Source: an uncultured Acutalibacter sp.
GTDB lineage: Bacteria; Bacillota; Clostridia; Oscillospirales; Acutalibacteraceae
DNA: 64,000 bases
Reading direction: 5' to 3'
Assembly: GCA_964577585.1 (NCBI GenBank)
Contig: CAZNZS010000003.1
Coordinates: 677-64,676, forward strand
The translations under genes were made by a program, and so were the position numbers. The notes beneath the pieces were generated by a model. The model searched no databases. It was not told where the DNA came from and saw only the letters and a program-made list of their open reading frames with translations. The stretch's first letter is position 1; each line of letters opens with the position of its first letter. Of this stretch, positions 2,383-34,479 are shown piece by piece.

Positions 2383-3225
2383 ATGTATTCATTCCCAATT
2401 GGAGTTTTGCTGGAATCATTTCGGCTGGATACCCTGAAAGCACTGGATGAAGCAGCCAAGCTCGGCCTTTCCGGTGTACAGATCCGTGTTACAGATGGGG
2501 TCCTTGCTCCGGAAAATCTAACAGCTGAGAAGCGCCGTGAGCTTTTGAAGGAAGTTAAGAGCCGTGGCCTGACCGTTTCCGCTTTGTGCGGCGATCTTGG
2601 ACATGGATTTGGTGATCCTGACAAAAATCCTGAACTTATCGAGCGCAGCAAGCGCATTGTCGATCTGGCCAAAGATCTGGAAACCGACGTTGTCACCACT
2701 CATATCGGTGTTGTACCCGGCGACAAAGCCCATCCCCGCTATGCCATTATGCAGGATGCCTGCGGTGAGCTGGCCGCTTACGCTGACAAGATGCAGGCTC
2801 ATTTCGCTATTGAGACAGGACCTGAAACGGCAGAAACGCTGAAAGGATTTTTGGATGGCCTTCATTCAAAAGGAGTGTCCGTGAACCTTGATCCGGCAAA
2901 CTTTGTCATGGTCACCGGCGACGATCCCGTGCAGGCTGTTTACACGCTGAAGGATTATATCGTCCATACACATGCCAAGGACGGGCGGCGTCTGCGCTAT
3001 GTGGATCCCGAGATCATATACGGGCTGGTGGAGGAAGAGATGCTTGGCAGTTCCTCGTTTATCGAATTGCCTCTTGGCGAAGGCGATGTGGATTTCCCCA
3101 ACTACCTGAAGGCCCTTGACGATATCGGTTTCAAGGGTTTCCTGACCATTGAACGCGAGGTGGGGGATGATCCCGGAAAAGACATTGCCGCCGCCGCTAA
3201 ATTCTTGAATGATTTGATTCACTGA
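2383..3225 (+). CDS. Sugar phosphate isomerase/epimerase (xylose isomerase-like TIM barrel)
   Basis: Metal-binding motifs AIETG, NLDPAN, HTHAKD, LTIERE. Confidence 0.88.
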   Translation: MYSFPIGVLLESFRLDTLKALDEAAKLGLSGVQIRVTDGVLAPENLTAEKRRELLKEVKSRGLTVSALCGDLGHGFGDPDKNPELIERSKRIVDLAKDLETDVVTTHIGVVPGDKAHPRYAIMQDACGELAAYADKMQAHFAIETGPETAETLKGFLDGLHSKGVSVNLDPANFVMVTGDDPVQAVYTLKDYIVHTHAKDGRRLRYVDPEIIYGLVEEEMLGSSSFIELPLGEGDVDFPNYLKALDDIGFKGFLTIEREVGDDPGKDIAAAAKFLNDLIH

Positions 3226-3240
3226 TAAGCTTTTCCCGGT

Positions 3241-3277
3241 CGGTACAGCTAACAGCTGTACCGGCTTTTCCTTTTTT
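3241..3277 (+). terminator. Intrinsic terminator
   Basis: cggtacagct-aac-agctgtaccg hairpin followed by a T-rich tail. Confidence 0.75.
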
Positions 3278-3287
3278 GCAAAAACGG

Positions 3288-3316
3288 TTGTAAAACGGGG
3301 AATACTGTGGTAGAAT
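3288..3316 (+). promoter_or_regulatory. sigmaA promoter (extended -10) of the YitT gene
   Basis: TTGTAA-17 nt-(TGG)TAGAAT. Confidence 0.6.
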
Positions 3317-3370
3317 CTGTGAGGTTTTGAGAGCAAAAAATGTAGGAACGGAAAGCCAGAGGTACCGGAA

Positions 3371-4261
3371 ATGGAAAATAATCCGCAACAGAAAAAAATC
3401 TTTTCACGCAGCGATCTTCCCACTCTGAAAACATTTGGCATTGTAAATTTGGGAGTCTTCCTTTTATCATTGGGCGTTTATTTCTTCAAGTTTCCCAATC
3501 ATTTCTCTACCGGGGGAGTCAGCGGCATTTCTATTATCCTCTCAAATGTGATCCCCTTTTTATCTCCTGCCACAATGATGTCAATGATCAATATTTTGCT
3601 TTTGATCGTCGGATTCATTTTTATTGGCAGGGGCTTCGGGGTTTTGACCGCTTACTGCAGCCTGATGTTCTCTTTTGAGACCTGGCTCTTTGAAAAGATT
3701 TATCCAATGACAGCTCCCTTTACCGATCAACCCCTTTTGGAGCTTTGCTTTGCCATTATGCTTCCCGCAGTGGGGTCTGCTCTGATGTTTAACTGTAATG
3801 CTTCCAGTGGCGGAACAGACATTATCGCCATGATCCTGAAAAAGTATACCGGGGTTGACGATATCGGAAAAGCTCTTCTTGTCAGCGACAGCTTGATTGC
3901 TCTTTCTGCTTGTTTTATTTTTGGCATAAAGACCGGGCTCTTTTCTCTGCTTGGCCTTTTTCTGAAGGCTTTTGTGGTGGATTCCGTAATTGAAAGCATC
4001 AATCTCTGTAAGTTTTTTTCCATTGTCACCTCAAAGCCCGAAGAAGTATGCGATTATGTGATCCACACTTTGAATCGAAGTGCAACAGTGATCAACGCGG
4101 AGGGCGCTTATTCTCACAAAGAGCGCAGTGTCGTCCTTACGGCGTGCAGGCGCGGAGAAGCGGTGAAGCTCCGTCAAAAGCTGAAAATGATCGATTCTCA
4201 CGCGTTTATGTTTATCACAAACACCAGTGAGATCATTGGGAAGGGTTTCAGGTCTGTTTGA
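3371..4261 (+). CDS. YitT family membrane protein
   Basis: Multiple TM segments, STGGVSGISI and ASSGGTDIIA motifs, C-terminal DUF2179-like domain ending EIIGKGF. Confidence 0.88.
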   Translation: MENNPQQKKIFSRSDLPTLKTFGIVNLGVFLLSLGVYFFKFPNHFSTGGVSGISIILSNVIPFLSPATMMSMINILLLIVGFIFIGRGFGVLTAYCSLMFSFETWLFEKIYPMTAPFTDQPLLELCFAIMLPAVGSALMFNCNASSGGTDIIAMILKKYTGVDDIGKALLVSDSLIALSACFIFGIKTGLFSLLGLFLKAFVVDSVIESINLCKFFSIVTSKPEEVCDYVIHTLNRSATVINAEGAYSHKERSVVLTACRRGEAVKLRQKLKMIDSHAFMFITNTSEIIGKGFRSV

Positions 4262-4431: not shown

Positions 4432-5022
4432 ATGGCGGAAAACGCTTACCTGGAGGAATTTTGCAATATATATAAGGAGCATGTCACTCGGGAAAACGGA
4501 GATAAGCTTCTTGCCTGGCTCATGACTACTGACTTTTTCACGGCTCCTGCCAGCACAAAATTTCACTGTGCCTGCGAATTTGGGCTGGTGCGTCACAGCA
4601 TCAATGTCTATAATGTGCTGCGAGAAAAGTATTTTGACGAAGGTGACAGTGAAGAATCCTTCGCTCTCTGTGGCCTTTTGCACGATATTTGCAAGGCGCA
4701 GTTTTATAAAGTGGCGACCCGGAATGTGAAAAATGATGAAACCGGTGTCTGGGAAAAGAAACCCTACTACACTGTCGAGGATATGTTCCCCTATGGCCAT
4801 GGAGAAAAATCAGTTTATCTCATTGAACGCTTTGTAAGGCTGAAGCCCGCTGAGGCAATGGCAATTCGTTGGCATATGGGCGGCTTTGACGATTCTGTAA
4901 AGGGGGGGAGCTTCGCAATAAGCTCCGCCTTTGATAAATATCCCCTGGCTGTAAAGCTGCATTTGGCAGATCTTGAGGCCACCTACCTTGTGGAACAAGG
5001 TACCTCTGAAGCCCGGCGGTGA
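4432..5022 (+). CDS. HD domain phosphohydrolase
   Basis: FFTAPAST..H..GLVRHS, LLHDICK, GHGEKS, AIRWHMG motifs. Confidence 0.85.
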   Translation: MAENAYLEEFCNIYKEHVTRENGDKLLAWLMTTDFFTAPASTKFHCACEFGLVRHSINVYNVLREKYFDEGDSEESFALCGLLHDICKAQFYKVATRNVKNDETGVWEKKPYYTVEDMFPYGHGEKSVYLIERFVRLKPAEAMAIRWHMGGFDDSVKGGSFAISSAFDKYPLAVKLHLADLEATYLVEQGTSEARR

Positions 5023-5047
5023 TATTCATTTTCAAAGAGGTAGCAAC

Positions 5048-6052
5048 ATGGATGCAATCATTACAAACGGCCTTTCAAAACGGTACGGAAATCAAACTGC
5101 ATTGTCCGGCCTGAATCTTGTGGTCCCGGAAGGAAGCGCCTTTGCCTGTGTTGGACGGGAAAAATCCGGAAAAACGACATTGATCCGTCTGCTTTCCGGC
5201 CTTTGCCGGCCAAACGCAGGAGAATGCACTGTTTTTGGCTTTTCTCCTTTCTTTGAAGCAGACAGGCTTCATGCCGTTACCGGAACCGTTACGGATATGG
5301 CACAGCTTTATGAAACCATGACTGTATCGCAGAATCTGCAATTTTTTGCAGGAATAAACGGAATAGAGGAAAATGATGCTTTGGACAGGCTTTCTTTCCT
5401 GCTTCACCGGCTGGATATCTGGGAAAGCAGAGACGAAAGGGTGAGTGAGCTGCCTACCAGTGTAGTTCGAAGAGCCTCTCTGGCCCGAGCATTGATCCAC
5501 AGTCCCAAGGTGCTTTTGATCGACGAGCCGAATGAAGGGCTGGACAGAGAAACTGCCGAAAGCATGGGAGAACTGTTTTCCCTCCTGATCTCACAGGAAG
5601 GCATGACACTTCTTTTGACTACGCAAAACACATATTATGCTCAGCGGACCTGCAGCAGCTTTGCCCTGATGAAGGATGGAGCTTTGCTTGGCAGGGGTGA
5701 TATCGAATCTTTACGAAAGAAGGCGGGCGTTCGGTATCAGGCTGTTCTGCGCTTGGGCGAAGGAGAAACGCCGCCCGATGGGTTTAGGCCCACGGAGAAC
5801 GGTGAATGGAAAAAGGCCATTGATTCCGAAGAAGATCTTTCCAGGATTATTTCCGCAGCTGTGGCTGATGGAAAAAAGCTTTATGAAGCCAAACTCGGAA
5901 AGCCCATTTTGGAAGAAATCTATTCCGCCTATCTGAGCGGCGGGATAATGAGAGGAGGCGAAGTGGATGAGCAGAACATCGAAGCGGTCGGTGAGGCAGA
6001 CGAAGACAACTCGAACGGGGAGCTGGACGGAGGAATTGTTTTCGAGGAATGA
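5048..6052 (+). CDS. ABC transporter ATP-binding protein (degenerate motifs)
   Basis: Walker A GREKSGKTT and Walker B LLIDEP; ATG at 5048 chosen after aaagaggt RBS. Confidence 0.8.
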   Translation: MDAIITNGLSKRYGNQTALSGLNLVVPEGSAFACVGREKSGKTTLIRLLSGLCRPNAGECTVFGFSPFFEADRLHAVTGTVTDMAQLYETMTVSQNLQFFAGINGIEENDALDRLSFLLHRLDIWESRDERVSELPTSVVRRASLARALIHSPKVLLIDEPNEGLDRETAESMGELFSLLISQEGMTLLLTTQNTYYAQRTCSSFALMKDGALLGRGDIESLRKKAGVRYQAVLRLGEGETPPDGFRPTENGEWKKAIDSEEDLSRIISAAVADGKKLYEAKLGKPILEEIYSAYLSGGIMRGGEVDEQNIEAVGEADEDNSNGELDGGIVFEE

Positions 6053-21022: not shown

Positions 21023-23791
21023 TTGTCAGCAAAAAAAACGACTTCGTCTGCCGTAAAAAAGCAGACGAACAGCAAGGGAGCGGCTTCCGGCAGTAAAAAG
21101 GCAGCTTCCCGAAATCAGAAAAGCAGAAACGCCGCCAACCACGCAACGGCAGAGGCGATTCGTCAGCGCAACCAGATCCGGGCGGTGGTGCTGTTTGCCT
21201 GCGCTGTTTTTCTAGCCTGCCTTGTTCTGATCACAGGCGATAATCTATGGAGATGGGCCCACAACGCGATTCTGGGTATTTTCGGCTCCTGGGCGATTAT
21301 TTGGCCAATTTTACTTGCCTATGTGGCTGTCGTGACAACGATGGAACGCCCTAAGGGTTCCATCAGTGGTAAAATATGGCTCTCAGCGCTGATCATCGTC
21401 TTGTTCTGCTGCGCAGGGTATGTGTTCGGCAGCCACACTGATCAGACAGGTATGAGCTTGTGGGAGTACATAGTTTATCTTTACCGGCAGAATGCCGGAG
21501 TCGGCGGCGGTGTGATAGGCGGCATTCTTGGCCTGCCGCTTATCAAGGGCGTAGGCGAAGTGGGCGCGAGGATCATCATTGTCCTTCTGCTTTTTGTCGC
21601 CATTATGATCTTGACCGGAACGACGCTGATCGGGCTGTTCCGCACTATCAAAAAGCCTGTTGACGTAGTTTCAGAAGGCTTACAGAATGCAAAGCAGCGC
21701 AGGGAAGAGGAACGTCTTATTTTAGAGCGTGATAGAGCTGCAAGCATCGATATTCCTTTGAATGACAGTTTCCCCGAGCATCCGGTCCGTTCAGAAACTG
21801 CACAACTTTTCCCGCAGCCTGAGCCAAAAAAGAAGAAGCGTGAAAAGAACGAAAAACTGGACAAGCTCAAAGAAGTGTTTGGTCTTGATGAAGAAACGCC
21901 CACGCTTCCTGAGTATGATAAGGACACACCCGAAGAGACAGAAGCTTTGGCAAAAGCAGTGGAAGAGCTGGAGGCCGCTGCCGGCGGGCACACCGATACG
22001 ACGGAAGCTGTACAGCCCGCTGTGCAGGAAAATGCCGCTGCGGACAGGCTCGTTTCTATTGTGACGGAAGCTTCCGCTCCTGTTTCTGAGACCGTTTCCG
22101 TACCGCCGCAAAAAAAAGAAGAAGCGCCTGTAAAACCAAAGACAGAAGCCGCGATTCCGGACGAAGTAAAAGATCTGACACGGGAATTCATGGAAAAGAA
22201 GGCGGAAAACGACCGCAGGGAAGCTACGACAGAGCAGCAGGCCTTGTATCAGGCGGCGGAACAGATGAAAAGCGCCTATTGTTTCCCACCTGTCACCATG
22301 CTGGCCGCAAGTCCCCGCACCGATCCTGCCGCTGAAACAGAGGAATTGCAGACAAACGGCAAGGTCCTTGTGGACACCTTGAAAAGCTTCGGCGTGCAGA
22401 CCAAGATCCTGGATATCTGCCGGGGCCCGTCTGTGACCCGGTATGAGATCCAGCCCGCTGCCGGTGTGAAGATCAGCAAGATCACGAATCTTTCCGATGA
22501 CCTTGCCCTGAATCTGGCGGCGACCGGCGTTCGTATCGAAGCTCCCATCCCCGGAAAAGCCGCTGTCGGTATTGAAGTGCCGAATAAGACCCGCAGCACC
22601 GTTCGCATGAGAGAACTGATCGAATCCAATTCCTTCCAGACCTCCAAAGGCAAGCTGTCTGTCATTTTGGGGCGTGATATCGCAGGTCAGCCCGTGATCG
22701 CGGATCTTTCAAAGATGCCCCACCTGCTTATCGCGGGCACTACCGGTTCCGGTAAATCGGTATGCATCAACTCACTGATCATCAGTATGCTTTACAAGGC
22801 GACTCCCGATGAGGTGCGCTTTTTGATGATTGATCCCAAAGCTGTGGAACTGACAGAATATAACGGCATGCCTCATATGCTGGTTCCCGTAGTCACCGAC
22901 CCCAGAAAAGCTTCCGGTGCGCTGGGCTGGGCGGTCACTGAAATGATGAACCGGTATAAGCTGTTTGCGGACTTCAATGTGCGCAATCTCAAGGGGTATA
23001 ATTCTCTGGCGGAATCACAGAATTATCAGGACGAGAACGGGCAGCCCATGCCTCCGATGCCTCAGATCGTTATCATCATAGACGAGTTGGCTGATCTTAT
23101 GATGGCCGCTCCAAAAGAAGTTGAAGACTCGATCTGCCGCCTTGCGCAGTTGGCGAGAGCTGCCGGAATGCATCTGGTAGTCGCGACCCAGCGGCCTTCT
23201 GTAGACGTTGTCACAGGCCTTATCAAGGCGAATATTCCCAGCCGGATCGCCTTGACGGTTTCAAACGCCATCGATTCCCGCACGATCCTTGACTCCGGCG
23301 GCGCTGAAAAGCTCCTTGGCAACGGCGATATGCTGTTTTCCCCTGTAGGGGCGAATAAGCCTGTTCGTGTGCAGGGCTGTTATGTGACAGACGGAGAGAT
23401 ATCTTCCATCGTAGAATTTGTCAAGAAAACCAGAAGCATCGAATACGATGAATCGGTCATAGAGGAGATCGAGCGCAACGCTGCCGGAACGGGAGAGAAA
23501 AACGAGCCCCAGGAGGAGAGCGGAGCTTCCACAGACCCCATGATGGACGAGGCTATCAAGTGCGTTGTAGAGGCAGGACAGGCTTCCACCTCTTTGTTGC
23601 AGCGGCGTTTGCGTCTGGGCTATGCCCGGGCCGGCCGGCTGATCGATGAAATGGAGCAGCTTGGGATCGTAGGCCCTCACGAAGGCTCCAAACCCAGACA
23701 GGTATTGATGACATATCAGCAATGGGCGGAAATGAACATGCAGAAGTCTGAACCGTATCATTCAGAAGCCGGTAATAACGATGAAGAATAA
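21023..23791 (+). CDS. ftsK: DNA translocase FtsK/SpoIIIE
   Basis: N-terminal TM domain, linker, GTTGSGKS Walker [10 protein letters not shown], gamma domain ([21 protein letters not shown]). Confidence 0.96.
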
Positions 23792-29857: not shown

Positions 29858-31237
29858 ATGGCCGGAAAAAGCAAAGTTATTTTTCAGTGTTCGGAATGCG
29901 GGTATGAGACGCCGAAATGGACAGGAAAATGCCCTGAATGCGGAGCTTGGAACAGTATGGTCGAAGTACTGCAGGCGCCTTCCATTCAGAAAGCATCTGC
30001 TTCAAGACCCTCAGGCGTGTCGTTTTCCCATTCTGTCGGCATCAATGAAATAAGCACGGAGGATGAGCACCGGTATCACACCGGTCTTTCGGAATTGGAC
30101 CGCGTTCTCGGCGGCGGTATCGTAAAAGGATCCCTGGTACTGATCAGCGGTGATCCGGGAATAGGAAAGTCCACTATGTTGTTACAAATCTGTGAACAAC
30201 TTGGGAAGGAATTGCAAATTCTTTATGTCTCAGGAGAGGAATCTGCAAGACAGATCAAGCTTAGAGCCACCAGATTAGGCGTCCAAAACCCCAATCTGAA
30301 GGTCCTGACTGAAACAGATGTACAATATATAGCGGAAGAGATCCGAACGGAAAAGCCGGATCTTGTGATGATCGATTCCATTCAGACCATGAATCATACC
30401 GATCTGAATTCTTCTCCCGGCAGCATAACCCAGGTCAGAGAATGCACGAATCTGATGACGCGCTGCGCTAAAAGCCTTGATATTCCCATCATTATTGTCG
30501 GCCATGTCAATAAGGACGGAGCCATTGCCGGACCTAAGGTCCTGGAACACATCGTTGATGCGGTGCTGTATTTTGAAGGCGACCGACAGATGACTTATCG
30601 CATATTGCGAGCCGTCAAAAACCGATACGGCTCCACAAATGAGATTGGTGTGTTTGATATGGGGGAGAACGGTCTAAAAGAGGTCGAAAACCCTTCACAG
30701 GCAATGCTTTCAGGCCGTCCTGTGGGAGCCTCCGGCACCTGCGTAACGGCTATTATGGAGGGAAGCCGGCCTATTTTGGCCGAAGTGCAGGGGTTAGCCA
30801 CCACGTCTGGTTTCGGTACACCGAGAAGAATGTCCACGGGCTTTGATTATAACCGTATGGCGCTTATCCTGGCGGTTCTGGAAAAGAGGGCGGGCTTCTA
30901 TTTTTCCAATTTGGACGCATATATCAATGTTGTCGGTGGCCTCCGTTTGGACGAGCCATCTGCTGATCTGGCTGTTGCAATGGCGCTGATATCCAGCCTG
31001 AAGGATATCCCGATCAGAGAAGATACGGTAGTTTTCGGAGAAATTGGTCTTGCCGGGGAACTCAGAAGCATCAACAGGGTCGATCTGAGGATCTCCGAAG
31101 CTGCAAGGCTCGGTTTTTCACGCTGCGTGATACCGTACCATAACTTGAAGGGAATCAGCCGTTCGGATGGCATTGAAATCATCGGCGCACGAACGATACG
31201 GGATGCCTACGAAGCCGCAAGTTCAGGAAAGCAATGA
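29858..31237 (+). CDS. radA: DNA repair protein RadA/Sms
   Basis: C4 zinc finger, GDPGIGKST, KNRYG, Lon-like C-terminal domain. Confidence 0.96.
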   Translation: MAGKSKVIFQCSECGYETPKWTGKCPECGAWNSMVEVLQAPSIQKASASRPSGVSFSHSVGINEISTEDEHRYHTGLSELDRVLGGGIVKGSLVLISGDPGIGKSTMLLQICEQLGKELQILYVSGEESARQIKLRATRLGVQNPNLKVLTETDVQYIAEEIRTEKPDLVMIDSIQTMNHTDLNSSPGSITQVRECTNLMTRCAKSLDIPIIIVGHVNKDGAIAGPKVLEHIVDAVLYFEGDRQMTYRILRAVKNRYGSTNEIGVFDMGENGLKEVENPSQAMLSGRPVGASGTCVTAIMEGSRPILAEVQGLATTSGFGTPRRMSTGFDYNRMALILAVLEKRAGFYFSNLDAYINVVGGLRLDEPSADLAVAMALISSLKDIPIREDTVVFGEIGLAGELRSINRVDLRISEAARLGFSRCVIPYHNLKGISRSDGIEIIGARTIRDAYEAASSGKQ

Positions 31238-31357
31238 AAACAGCTTTCGTCCACGTGCGTGATTTCATCGGCAGTCAAGCAAAGCCGGCTTATTATTATG
31301 GCCGTCAGATCTCAAGCCAATATGTATACAGAGTTTCCCTGGGGAAAGAAAATGTGT

Positions 31358-31387
31358 AATTGTAGAAAATGAATATTTTCTACAATT
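31358..31387. repeat. Perfect 13-bp inverted repeat with GAAAA-N6-TTTTC core; candidate dif-like site or operator
   Basis: aattgtagaaaat-gaat-attttctacaatt, ending 42 bp before the recombinase ATG. Confidence 0.6.
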
Positions 31388-31429
31388 CAGGGAGGACAAA
31401 ACAGCAAAGAAAGGCTGGGATACAGATAT

Positions 31430-32446
31430 ATGAGCTTTTCCATCAAAGAAGACATGTCTGCCATTGTACAGCAATATGCAATGTATTTGAGAAATATCAA
31501 GGGCTTGTCCGCAAAAACTGTTGAGCAGTATTGTAAGGATCTCAGAACCTTTTTCCGCTTTATTAAAATTGATCGCGGTCTGGCGAACGCCGGTCAGTCT
31601 ATGGAAAATATTTCTGTTACAGATGTTGACCTTGAATTTCTGCGTACGATCCAAACTATGGATATTTTTGAGTTCATGAACTATGTTGCAGATGACAGAA
31701 ACAATATGAGCTCTACACGGCAGAGAAAATCTTCTTCGTTAAAATCCTTTTTCAAATATCTCAATGTCCATGAGAAGCTTTTGGACTTCGATCCGACAGA
31801 GAATCTCACTCCCCCAAAAAAGAAGAAGGCTCTTCCCCACTTTCTTTCGCTCGAACAAAGTATCGAACTTTTGAATTCAGTGGACGGCCCCAATGCGGAG
31901 CGCGACCGCTGCATTTTAACGTTGTTTTTGAATTGCGGCATGCGCCTTTCTGAGCTCGTTTCCATCAATATCACCGATGTAATACACAACAATTCTACTC
32001 TGCGCATTTTGGGAAAAGGAAATAAAGAACGTATCGTCTATTTGAATCAGGCCTGTATGAATTCCATAGAAGCATATCTTGCCGTTCGACCGAAAGACGG
32101 CGTTATTGACCGCAACGCGCTGTTTCTGAGCAACCGCATGACCAGAATCAGCTACCGGACTGTGCAGGAGCTTGTAAAACACTATCTTGCAAAGATAGGC
32201 CTGGGCGGTCCTGGATTCTCTGTTCACAAGCTCAGGCACACGGCTGCTACATTGATGTACCGATATGGAGACGTTGATATCCGCGTTCTCCAGGATATTC
32301 TGGGCCATGCCAATCTTGGTACCACGGAAATATACACACATACTTCCAGCAATCAGATGGAGGCTGCCGTCAACTCAAATCCCCTGGCAAATATCAAGGC
32401 CCGAAAAAAGCCTTCCAAAAGCTCTGATGAAAACGATGAAGAATGA
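31430..32446 (+). CDS. Tyrosine recombinase, XerC/XerS-like
   Basis: Catalytic R (GMRLSEL), K (GKGNKER), HKLRH, LGH and Y (TEIYTH); extended N-terminal domain. Confidence 0.92.
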   Translation: MSFSIKEDMSAIVQQYAMYLRNIKGLSAKTVEQYCKDLRTFFRFIKIDRGLANAGQSMENISVTDVDLEFLRTIQTMDIFEFMNYVADDRNNMSSTRQRKSSSLKSFFKYLNVHEKLLDFDPTENLTPPKKKKALPHFLSLEQSIELLNSVDGPNAERDRCILTLFLNCGMRLSELVSINITDVIHNNSTLRILGKGNKERIVYLNQACMNSIEAYLAVRPKDGVIDRNALFLSNRMTRISYRTVQELVKHYLAKIGLGGPGFSVHKLRHTAATLMYRYGDVDIRVLQDILGHANLGTTEIYTHTSSNQMEAAVNSNPLANIKARKKPSKSSDENDEE

Positions 32447-33563: not shown

Positions 33564-34460
33564 TTATCCAAGCTTTGCCTTAGGATGGCAATCCTGGTAA
33601 ACCTGCTTTACTCGGCTGTCCAACAGCTGCACATAAACCTGTGTAGAAGAAATGTCAGCATGTCCCATCATAGACTGAATATCCTTTACCGAAGCACCGT
33701 TCTGCAGCAGATGCAGAGCGAAGGAATGCCGCAGAGTGTGCGGCGTGATTTCTTTCTGGATATTGGCTTGCTTTGCATACCTTTTCACAATCTTCCAGAA
33801 TCCCTGCCTGGTAAGCCGTCCGCCATTGAGGTTTACAAACAGCGCGCTTCCACTGTCAGGCCCGGAGATCAGATCACGCATCCGGTAAATGTAATCGGAA
33901 ACCGCTACAACGGCCGAAGGATACATCGGAATGGGACGAACACCCTTGTTTCCCCTGCAGTAAAGCACGCCGGAGCGAAGGTTTACGTCTTTGATATTTA
34001 AGTTGATAAGCTCCGAAACCCTGATTCCGGTGGCGTATAACAGCTCAAGCATCGCCTTGTCACGGCAGCCCTTTGGATCGGTGATATCAGGCTGGGCAAG
34101 AAGACGTTCAATATCTTCCCCCGAAAGAACCTGTGGAAGCTTTTTTACAGTTTTTTCCAGTTTGATATTTTTTGCGGGATTTACATCGACAAAGCCGCGA
34201 AAAATGAGAAATTTGTAAAAACACCGCACAGAAGCCAGATTTCTGGAAATCGTTGTAGGAGAACGCTTTATTTCATGGAGATAGTCAACGTACTCCTGAA
34301 TCTGTTCCTCATTCAGGTTCAAAGGCGACATATCGCGCACAGTGAGGTATTGCAGGAAATACATAATATCTCTGAGATAAGACTCTCTGGTATTGGCAGA
34401 GCTTGGCTTTTGTATCTCCAGATACTCGCCGAACATGGAATAGTAATCGTCATTTTTCAT
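33564..34460 (-). CDS. xerD: Tyrosine recombinase XerD (RipX-like)
   Basis: RDKAMLELLYATGIRVSEL, LTRQGFWKI, TPHTLRHSFA, MGHADISSTQVY motifs. Confidence 0.9.
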   Translation of the reverse strand: MKNDDYYSMFGEYLEIQKPSSANTRESYLRDIMYFLQYLTVRDMSPLNLNEEQIQEYVDYLHEIKRSPTTISRNLASVRCFYKFLIFRGFVDVNPAKNIKLEKTVKKLPQVLSGEDIERLLAQPDITDPKGCRDKAMLELLYATGIRVSELINLNIKDVNLRSGVLYCRGNKGVRPIPMYPSAVVAVSDYIYRMRDLISGPDSGSALFVNLNGGRLTRQGFWKIVKRYAKQANIQKEITPHTLRHSFALHLLQNGASVKDIQSMMGHADISSTQVYVQLLDSRVKQVYQDCHPKAKLG

Positions 34461-34479
34461 ACTCCTACCCACTTTCTGT

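Follow-up and report, generated by a model that had tools for sequence, protein, structure and literature searches.

A conserved palindrome beside an Xer-family recombinase as the probable dif site of an Acutalibacter chromosome

Where are chromosome dimers resolved in Acutalibacter and its relatives, and by how many enzymes? Dimer resolution is a core step of chromosome maintenance, and the question is raised here by a stretch of 64,000 nucleotides from an uncultured Acutalibacter sp. (GenBank assembly GCA_964577585.1, contig CAZNZS010000003.1, positions 677 to 64,676; hereafter the window), in which a perfect palindrome at 31358-31387 precedes the gene of an Xer-family tyrosine recombinase, named P0001 (31430-32446, + strand). 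An earlier reading, made from the sequence alone, had proposed that the two form a dimer-resolution module served by a single recombinase akin to XerS or XerH, with the palindrome acting as the dif site of the chromosome or as an autoregulatory site. From the copy number, conservation and chromosomal position of the palindrome in relatives, it is now highly probable that it is the chromosome's dif site, located at the replication terminus, and that the adjacent P0001 is its cognate Xer enzyme.

The palindrome, its conservation and its chromosomal position

The palindrome (AATTGTAGAAAATGAATATTTTCTACAATT) occurs only once in the window, with none of 100 shuffled sequences giving a match, and is likewise unique across the 2.57-Mb draft genome. 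A repeat finder delimits two arms of 13 nt each, 100% complementary, around a 4-nt spacer; this equals the 12+6+12 repeat described by the sequence-only reading, and the gap of 42 bp to the 338-amino-acid open reading frame (ORF) at 31430-32446 is also as it had been described. The 30 bp, to which no strand is assigned, can be divided in the 11-6-11 manner of dif sites into ATTGTAGAAAA (31359-31369), the centre TGAATA (31370-31375) and TTTTCTACAAT (31376-31386). The resulting 28-bp core (31359-31386) has the build general to Xer/dif systems, in which a site of about 28 bp, formed of two inverted arms of about 11 bp and a centre of 6-8 bp, is present in one copy per chromosome. One arm, TTTTGTATAAT, is identical at 8/11 positions, counted by eye, to the XerD arm of the Firmicutes dif, TTATGTAAACT (Kono 2011 list). 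A classical dif was also sought in this genome, and no match to the dif of B. subtilis or of E. coli was found when up to 7 mismatches were allowed. The sole genome match to ATAA-N6-TTATGTNAA, at 50641-50659 of contig C5, was taken as chance because it falls inside a 465-amino-acid ORF, on a contig whose GC skew is uniformly positive.

A gene of the P0001 type is present in one copy in 87/101 genera of the family, at 46-61% identity, and most of these genes are preceded by the same palindrome, with the consensus ATTATACAAAAT-NNNN-ATTTTGTATAAT. A strict, symmetric, degenerate IUPAC pattern finds exactly one match in 58/101 genera and never two, against 2/101 for the reversed control. All 58 belong to the 87 genomes that hold the gene, and none to the 14 that lack it (Fisher p=1.5e-6). 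A covariance model (R1), built from 34 sites and calling a site at E<=1e-4, recognises it in about 77 of the 87 gene-bearing genomes, and gives no match better than E=0.01 in the 14 without. On contigs that carry both, the site lies 5' of the gene in 49/49 cases and within 300 bp of it in 36. The motif search upstream of orthologues that had been proposed as a check of the sequence-only reading therefore turns out in its favour, by both the family pattern and the covariance model.

Beyond the family, the pattern occurs in 115/301 Clostridia genomes from many families, nearly always as a single copy. The exact consensus has at least 120 matches over 185,579 species genomes; among the matches listed, the informatively named records are all Clostridia or Bacillota, and include Acutalibacter, Ruminococcus, Butyricicoccus, Anaeromassilibacillus, Acetivibrio and a Lachnospiraceae metagenome-assembled genome (MAG). 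For 120 named Clostridia species, again among the matches listed, the gene falls within the fetched 8-kb locus in 51, with the site upstream in 50, and at least 69/120 have a locus without a P0001-type match above 150 bits.

The position of the site relative to the replication terminus was followed by GC skew in three closed genomes of the family, sampled coarsely genome-wide and finely around the site (genomes are cited by working labels). In G009 (2.54 Mb), the site at 1,130,795 lies 15 kb from the cumulative skew maximum at 1,145,795, with skew positive up to 1.14 Mb and negative thereafter. In G071 (2.34 Mb) and G095 (1.99 Mb), the sites at 1,949,386 and 863,866 coincide with the cumulative maximum within one 5-kb bin; the former genome has its origin-type switch near 0.78 Mb, and the latter has positive skew before the site and mostly negative skew after it. 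By the coarse sampling, the site region is the single positive-to-negative switch in each of the three.

As the gene usually abuts the site, closed genomes alone cannot tell whether the site or the gene is linked to the terminus, and three genomes in which they are uncoupled were therefore examined. In G093 the skew switches at about 95-103 kb and the site lies at 103.2 kb, whereas the xer gene, at 69.5 kb, has positive skew on both sides; in G096 the switch is at 44 kb, the site at 47.5 kb and the gene at 60.3 kb. In G089 the switch (83.0 kb) and the site (83.2 kb) share contig C6, and the gene, on contig C2, is surrounded by mostly negative skew on both sides, without a switch of the terminus type. 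The switch thus tracks the site, not the gene, in 3/3 uncoupled genomes, which counts strongly against the palindrome being purely an operator of the gene.

On the 66-kb contig from which the window is taken, skew is positive to the left and negative to the right, turning at about 30-35 kb. Between 30000 and 35000 of the window, gene orientation also passes from mostly + to mostly -, the pattern expected at a replication terminus. The GC-skew check proposed earlier has thereby come out with the site 0-15 kb from the cumulative maximum in three closed relatives, and the inference of a dif site holds on conservation upstream of orthologues, position at the skew terminus and single copy number. 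A known dif for the Oscillospirales and related gut Clostridia would mark the terminus in draft genomes and MAGs, and could serve as a natural means of excising markers ('Xer-cise') from bacteria that resist engineering.

The recombinase and its relation to known Xer systems

P0001, characterised by its ORF, domains, alignment, tree and structural model, joins a Phage_integrase catalytic domain to an N-terminal SAM-like domain, and so has the make-up usual in Xer/dif systems, that of a simple two-domain tyrosine recombinase with the catalytic set R-K-H-R-H-Y. The residues concerned (R172, K199, H266, R269, H293 and Y302) are all invariant in an alignment of 56 sequences, which bears out the complete catalytic set seen by the sequence-only reading. 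An insertion of about 20 residues (roughly 58-77) is conserved among orthologues; E. coli XerC and XerD lack it, as does P0002, a second tyrosine recombinase encoded nearby and considered below. In an AlphaFold2 model (pLDDT 85) the insertion forms an ordered extra element. At the C-terminus, the alignment places NPLA where XerC, XerD and P0002 carry HPRA or HPKA.

Scored against NCBIfam models, P0001 reaches 214.7 bits with XerC (TIGR02224, cut-off 335), 205.1 with XerD (TIGR02225, cut-off 329.6; HPRA tail replaced by NPLA) and 157.8 with XerS (NF003462, cut-off 267), and narrowly misses XerA (NF040815) with 213.3 bits against 220. The XerH family is not among its NCBIfam matches. A sequence search of the PDB returned XerD at 121 bits, XerA at 111 and 105, and XerH as the weakest Xer at 59, while by fold (Foldseek against the PDB) XerA came first (4a8e and 5hxy; E 1e-12), followed by Brujita integrase, XerD, IntI and, at rank 11, XerH. 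The kinship to XerS or XerH that had been proposed is not upheld by these scores. Of the N-terminal insertion, its presence stands and its resemblance to XerS does not, the best XerS stretch being in the C-terminal half of the protein (residues 155-316). Judged by these comparisons, the likeness of P0001 to XerS and XerH is one of layout, with the gene beside the site, and not of ancestry.

The phylogeny that had also been suggested, run with E. coli XerC and XerD and archaeal XerA, places the P0001 type in a separate clade (support 100/100) with a long stem, outside the clade (91/83) in which the P0002 type joins XerC and XerD of E. coli; its branching relative to two archaeal XerA fragments is not settled. 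By sequence comparison, P0001 belongs to a lineage of its own, separate from XerC, XerD, XerS and XerH and found widely across Clostridia.

The site itself both resembles and departs from known dif sites. Streptococcal difSL has 31 bp and is asymmetric, in contrast to the perfect palindrome of 28-32 bp found here. The core of difH, GAAAA-N6-TTTTC, is common to the present site, and the centre of the E. coli dif reads TGTATA, against TGAATA here.

Single-recombinase systems are known for XerS, XerH, XerA and XerL. XerS of Streptococcus and Lactococcus is encoded directly downstream of its own dif in a terminus module (PMC1914069, PMC2965235), a layout also found for P0001, and both systems have a Firmicute host and an FtsK homologue; P0001 differs in not being an XerS equivalog. 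XerH of Helicobacter and Campylobacter likewise acts as one recombinase with its gene near the site (PMC3325230, PMC5241119), but the central region of the present site differs, and XerH is remote from P0001 in both score and fold. The XerL system of Legionellales, which likewise escaped homology searches, combines a single recombinase with dif arms formed by uninterrupted inverted repeats of 10-12 bp, described as unusual even for systems with a single recombinase (10.1101/2021.09.12.459815; PMC9765430). Comparing site symmetry alone, such long uninterrupted arms are also present here; Legionella dif and xerL, however, are more than 400 kb apart and belong to another phylum, whereas the present pair usually abuts. 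XerA, which provides the top structural matches to P0001 (4a8e, 5hxy), acts alone, but is archaeal and lacks the 20-residue N-terminal insertion, the PDB alignments starting past that region.

With the XerC/XerD-dif systems of E. coli and B. subtilis, the present one shares the 11-6-11 geometry, the terminus position, the single copy and arms resembling that of XerD. It differs in that its arms are identical, that P0001 lies outside the E. coli XerC and XerD clade and below both equivalog cut-offs, and that the XerD type is dispensable in most genera here. An earlier large-scale dif prediction (Kono 2011) covered very few Clostridia, with different or poor sites, some of them about 175 degrees from the skew switch. 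Within the incomplete body of literature covered, and including a search by the letters of the site, no description of the present site or of its one-enzyme system was found.

One enzyme or two, the source of direction and rival explanations

Whether P0001 shares the site with a partner can be approached through the arms, which are dyad-symmetric at 98.3% of positions in 34 distinct sites. At 6/12 arm positions both sides have changed, a co-variation reached by 0/500 shuffles and seen in pairs such as ATTGTAG/CTACAAT, ACTTCGC/GCGAAGT and ACTAAAC/GTTTAGT; such a pattern is expected if both arms are read with a single DNA-binding specificity. When tyrosine recombinases were counted in ten genomes that have the site and the P0001 type but no P0002 type, the P0001 type proved to be the sole PF00589 match in G048, G089 and G055, which are 99, 99 and 93% complete and each carry the site. 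Taken as sequence evidence, these observations point to the P0001 type acting alone in many genera, and the single-recombinase model is well supported at the level of the family.

The principal alternative is a two-recombinase system, in which P0001 would serve as XerC and P0002 as XerD in a heterotetramer, with FtsK activating XerD and the absence of the second enzyme elsewhere due to secondary loss. P0002 (302 amino acids; 33564-34472, - strand), identified by domain and NCBIfam models, alignment and tree, lies 1.1 kb downstream of P0001 and was not mentioned by the sequence-only reading. It is of the XerD type, scoring 317.5 bits with the XerD model (cut-off 329.6) and passing the Xer subfamily model NF001399 (301 against 279), and its C-terminal HPKAKLG is like the HPRA of XerC and XerD. 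Both genes are within 3 kb of the site, and P0001 homologues at 78% identity, in Acutalibacter muris and Neglectibacter timonensis, carry the NCBI label XerC. Genes of the P0002 type also tend to adjoin dif in other genera, being adjacent in G071, G083, G040 and G038 and beside the site itself in G090.

A heterotetramer is nonetheless an unlikely arrangement. The symmetric, co-varying arms argue for one DNA-binding specificity, and the site tracks the P0001 type: the P0002 type is present in only 38/101 genera, 32 genera that lack it combine the site with the P0001 type, and three genera with only the P0002 type have no site. Three genomes hold the P0001 type alone, as described above, and P0001 is without the HPRA tail. 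The single recombinase proposed earlier consequently stands for the family, by the scarcity of the P0002 type and the three sole-enzyme genomes, but not for the genome of the window. There, P0002 is present, with four PF00589 matches in the draft, two of them at this locus, and it may take part at dif or serve another function. In B. subtilis, XerD has a role in the unloading of SMC.

In the single-enzyme model, two P0001 protomers would bind the two identical arms of 11-13 bp, and two such complexes on a chromosome dimer would synapse as a homotetramer. Tyr302 would then cleave at the borders of the 6-bp centre, and two pairs of strand exchanges would yield monomers. Delivery of the complex and its activation at the septum probably fall to FtsK. 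The candidate activator is a translocase of the FtsK/SpoIIIE type (922 amino acids; 21023-23791, + strand), whose gamma domain (about 23528-23713; PF09397, 104 bits) is encoded 8 kb from the site; the presence of an FtsK with this domain is a general feature of Xer/dif systems, and it is also found in the single-Xer genomes G048 and G089. XerA is not known to depend on FtsK. As the site mostly falls within the leader or promoter of xer, its occupancy may also damp xer expression.

With symmetric arms, direction must come from elsewhere, and its source for a homotetramer on a fully symmetric site is the mechanistic question that the system raises. The candidates are the asymmetric centre GAAT and a one-sided, G-rich flank, the latter offering a testable answer. 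That the system constitutes a fifth single-recombinase Xer/dif family beside XerS, XerH, XerA and XerL, extending through much of Clostridia, with centre and flank setting direction, is put forward tentatively, as a possibility that we hold to be less probable than not.

The flank (TCAGGGAGG; 31387-31395, + strand) has, in aligned flanks of sites from different species, the consensus T-N-A-GGG-(G/A)-A-G, of which the first two bases prolong the palindrome. Among the matches listed, exact GGG[GA]AG at +4..+9 occurs on one side only in 54/119 species and on both sides in 0, against 0.1 by chance, and a looser measure finds the flank on one side in 106/119 and on the opposite side in 3/119. It is kept at 64/73 sites without a nearby xer gene. 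The side on which it lies matches the polarity of the four central bases in every case (GAAT, GCAA, CAAA and others, with 75% purine on the strand concerned), and in the window GAAT reads on the strand of the flank. We take the flank to be a genuine determinant of asymmetry. It might restrict the approach of FtsK, or activation by it, to one side; it could alternatively bind an accessory factor, and in either way would fix the order of strand exchange in the homotetramer.

Two other roles for the flank were considered and rejected. In the compact modules of G071 and G095 it doubles as the Shine-Dalgarno sequence of xer, but it does not serve as a ribosome-binding site in general, most of the 119 loci being without an ORF of at least 80 amino acids that starts at a suitable distance. 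Words were also tested as polar sequences of the kinds read by FtsK (KOPS, FtsK-orienting polar sequences) and SpoIIIE (SRS, SpoIIIE recognition sequences). Polarity toward the site is 54:15 for GGGNAGGG, and GGGGAG reaches 83%. Flank-like words exceed other purine-rich ones (GAGGAG, for example, 73%) in replichore polarity no further than this, so that the test neither singles out a KOPS nor ties the flank to FtsK. Overall, they are no more polarised than such words.

Other roles for the palindrome itself have to be weighed against a dif site. It could be an operator only, controlling xer transcription through the recombinase or another dimeric regulator without any part in recombination, and such a role would suit its position, which in most genomes is the gene's 5' leader or promoter. 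A sigma-70-like promoter, on the side opposite the G-rich flank and firing into the site, is found at 28/105 loci against 2/105 in the control, and G095 and G083 each have a near-perfect TTGAC(A/T)-17-TATAAT promoter directly beside the site; the promoter scan of the window gave one weak candidate, at 31268-31296. Yet the site is retained, still in one copy, in genomes where the gene lies 4-33 kb away or on another contig; the skew switch then goes with the site, which is also found in the many named species noted above whose locus gave no P0001-type match above 150 bits. The site has, furthermore, the geometry and arm sequence of a dif and is mimicked by a microvirus, so that a purely regulatory role appears very improbable.

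An attachment or resolution site of a mobile element, or the crossover of an invertible switch, would be in keeping with a contig of G016 that has two sites around a Rep-like gene and with the mimics in Microviridae (both described below). Nearly all genomes, however, have one copy, and thus no partner site for inversion, and the site is inherited at the terminus across the family and much of the class, constant while the flanking genes vary; the chance that it is anything but a chromosomal housekeeping site on this account is very slim. Scarcely credible, finally, is an RNA or DNA hairpin without a protein partner, such as a radA terminator or a leader structure. The 13-bp stem can fold and lies 120 bp after radA, but it is AT-rich, no T-tract follows, and the terminator scan of the window did not call the palindrome. 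From genome to genome the genes upstream change, and the palindrome can face either way relative to the gene with its sequence retained; its terminus position and single copy would be left without explanation.

Several points nevertheless weigh against a dif site served by P0001 as described. That P0001 recombines the site and resolves dimers is predicted from sequence, and the paralogous P0002, only 1.1 kb away, makes a heteromeric complex possible in this genome. About ten genomes with the recombinase yield no confident site, some of them being incomplete or having contigs that are cut. The references in the tree are few, with a single XerC and without XerS, XerH, XerL or the B. subtilis CodV and RipX, and in view of the NCBI label some would call P0001 simply the clostridial XerC. 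As the genome is a draft of 183 contigs, 91% complete, its terminus is inferred from one 66-kb contig together with relatives. A link between flank and FtsK is hypothetical, since flank-like words are no more polarised than other purine-rich words.

Neighbouring genes and mobile elements at the site

The palindrome begins 120 bp after radA (29858-31237), and downstream of P0001, on the opposite strand, a DUF624 gene is followed by P0002. With radA and, 8 kb from dif, the ftsK homologue, the terminus of this genome groups genes of DNA maintenance, a grouping that is not conserved in G009, G071 and G095.

Small mobile elements appear to make use of the site. A 5.3-kb circular Microviridae sp. 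genome from elk faeces (MG945286.1) carries TTTATACATAAT-GAAT-ATTTTGTATAAT at 1178-1205, in an intergenic region, with one arm perfect and the other degenerate, as in the dif mimics of elements that exploit Xer; its sequence suggests that it integrates via the host Xer enzyme. A dif site here would explain the insertion point of small phages and of elements without an integrase. Another Microviridae genome and three lemur 'Dulem' viruses gave weaker matches to the site. Plasmid matches were weak and from unrelated taxa, and were set aside, as was positions 60-160 of MT839262.1 ('Bacteriophage sp.'), a near-exact copy of the bacterial promoter-dif-xer junction of G095; the entry is probably a bacterial fragment or prophage junction filed as phage.

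Some bacterial contigs carry more than one such site or gene. In a Clostridia MAG locus (L114), two genes of the P0001 type, at 1633-2667 and 4654-5691, flank a single dif site; the pair may have arisen by duplication, or a mobile element may have introduced one of the two. Three dif-like matches occur in G065, two of them 2.5 kb apart on contig C62 (321-348 and 2859-2886) and one on C25 (4619-4646), 7.8 kb upstream of the xer gene, and these could be another inserted element. On the 6.3-kb contig C37 of G016, dif-like sites at 157-184 and 2756-2786 bracket 2.6 kb, within which are encoded a 299-amino-acid Rep-like protein with an HUH motif (981-1880) and a tyrosine-recombinase-like ORF of 173 amino acids (455-976). 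A second Rep-like ORF is located at 3004-3768, and the whole looks like small rolling-circle elements at dif.

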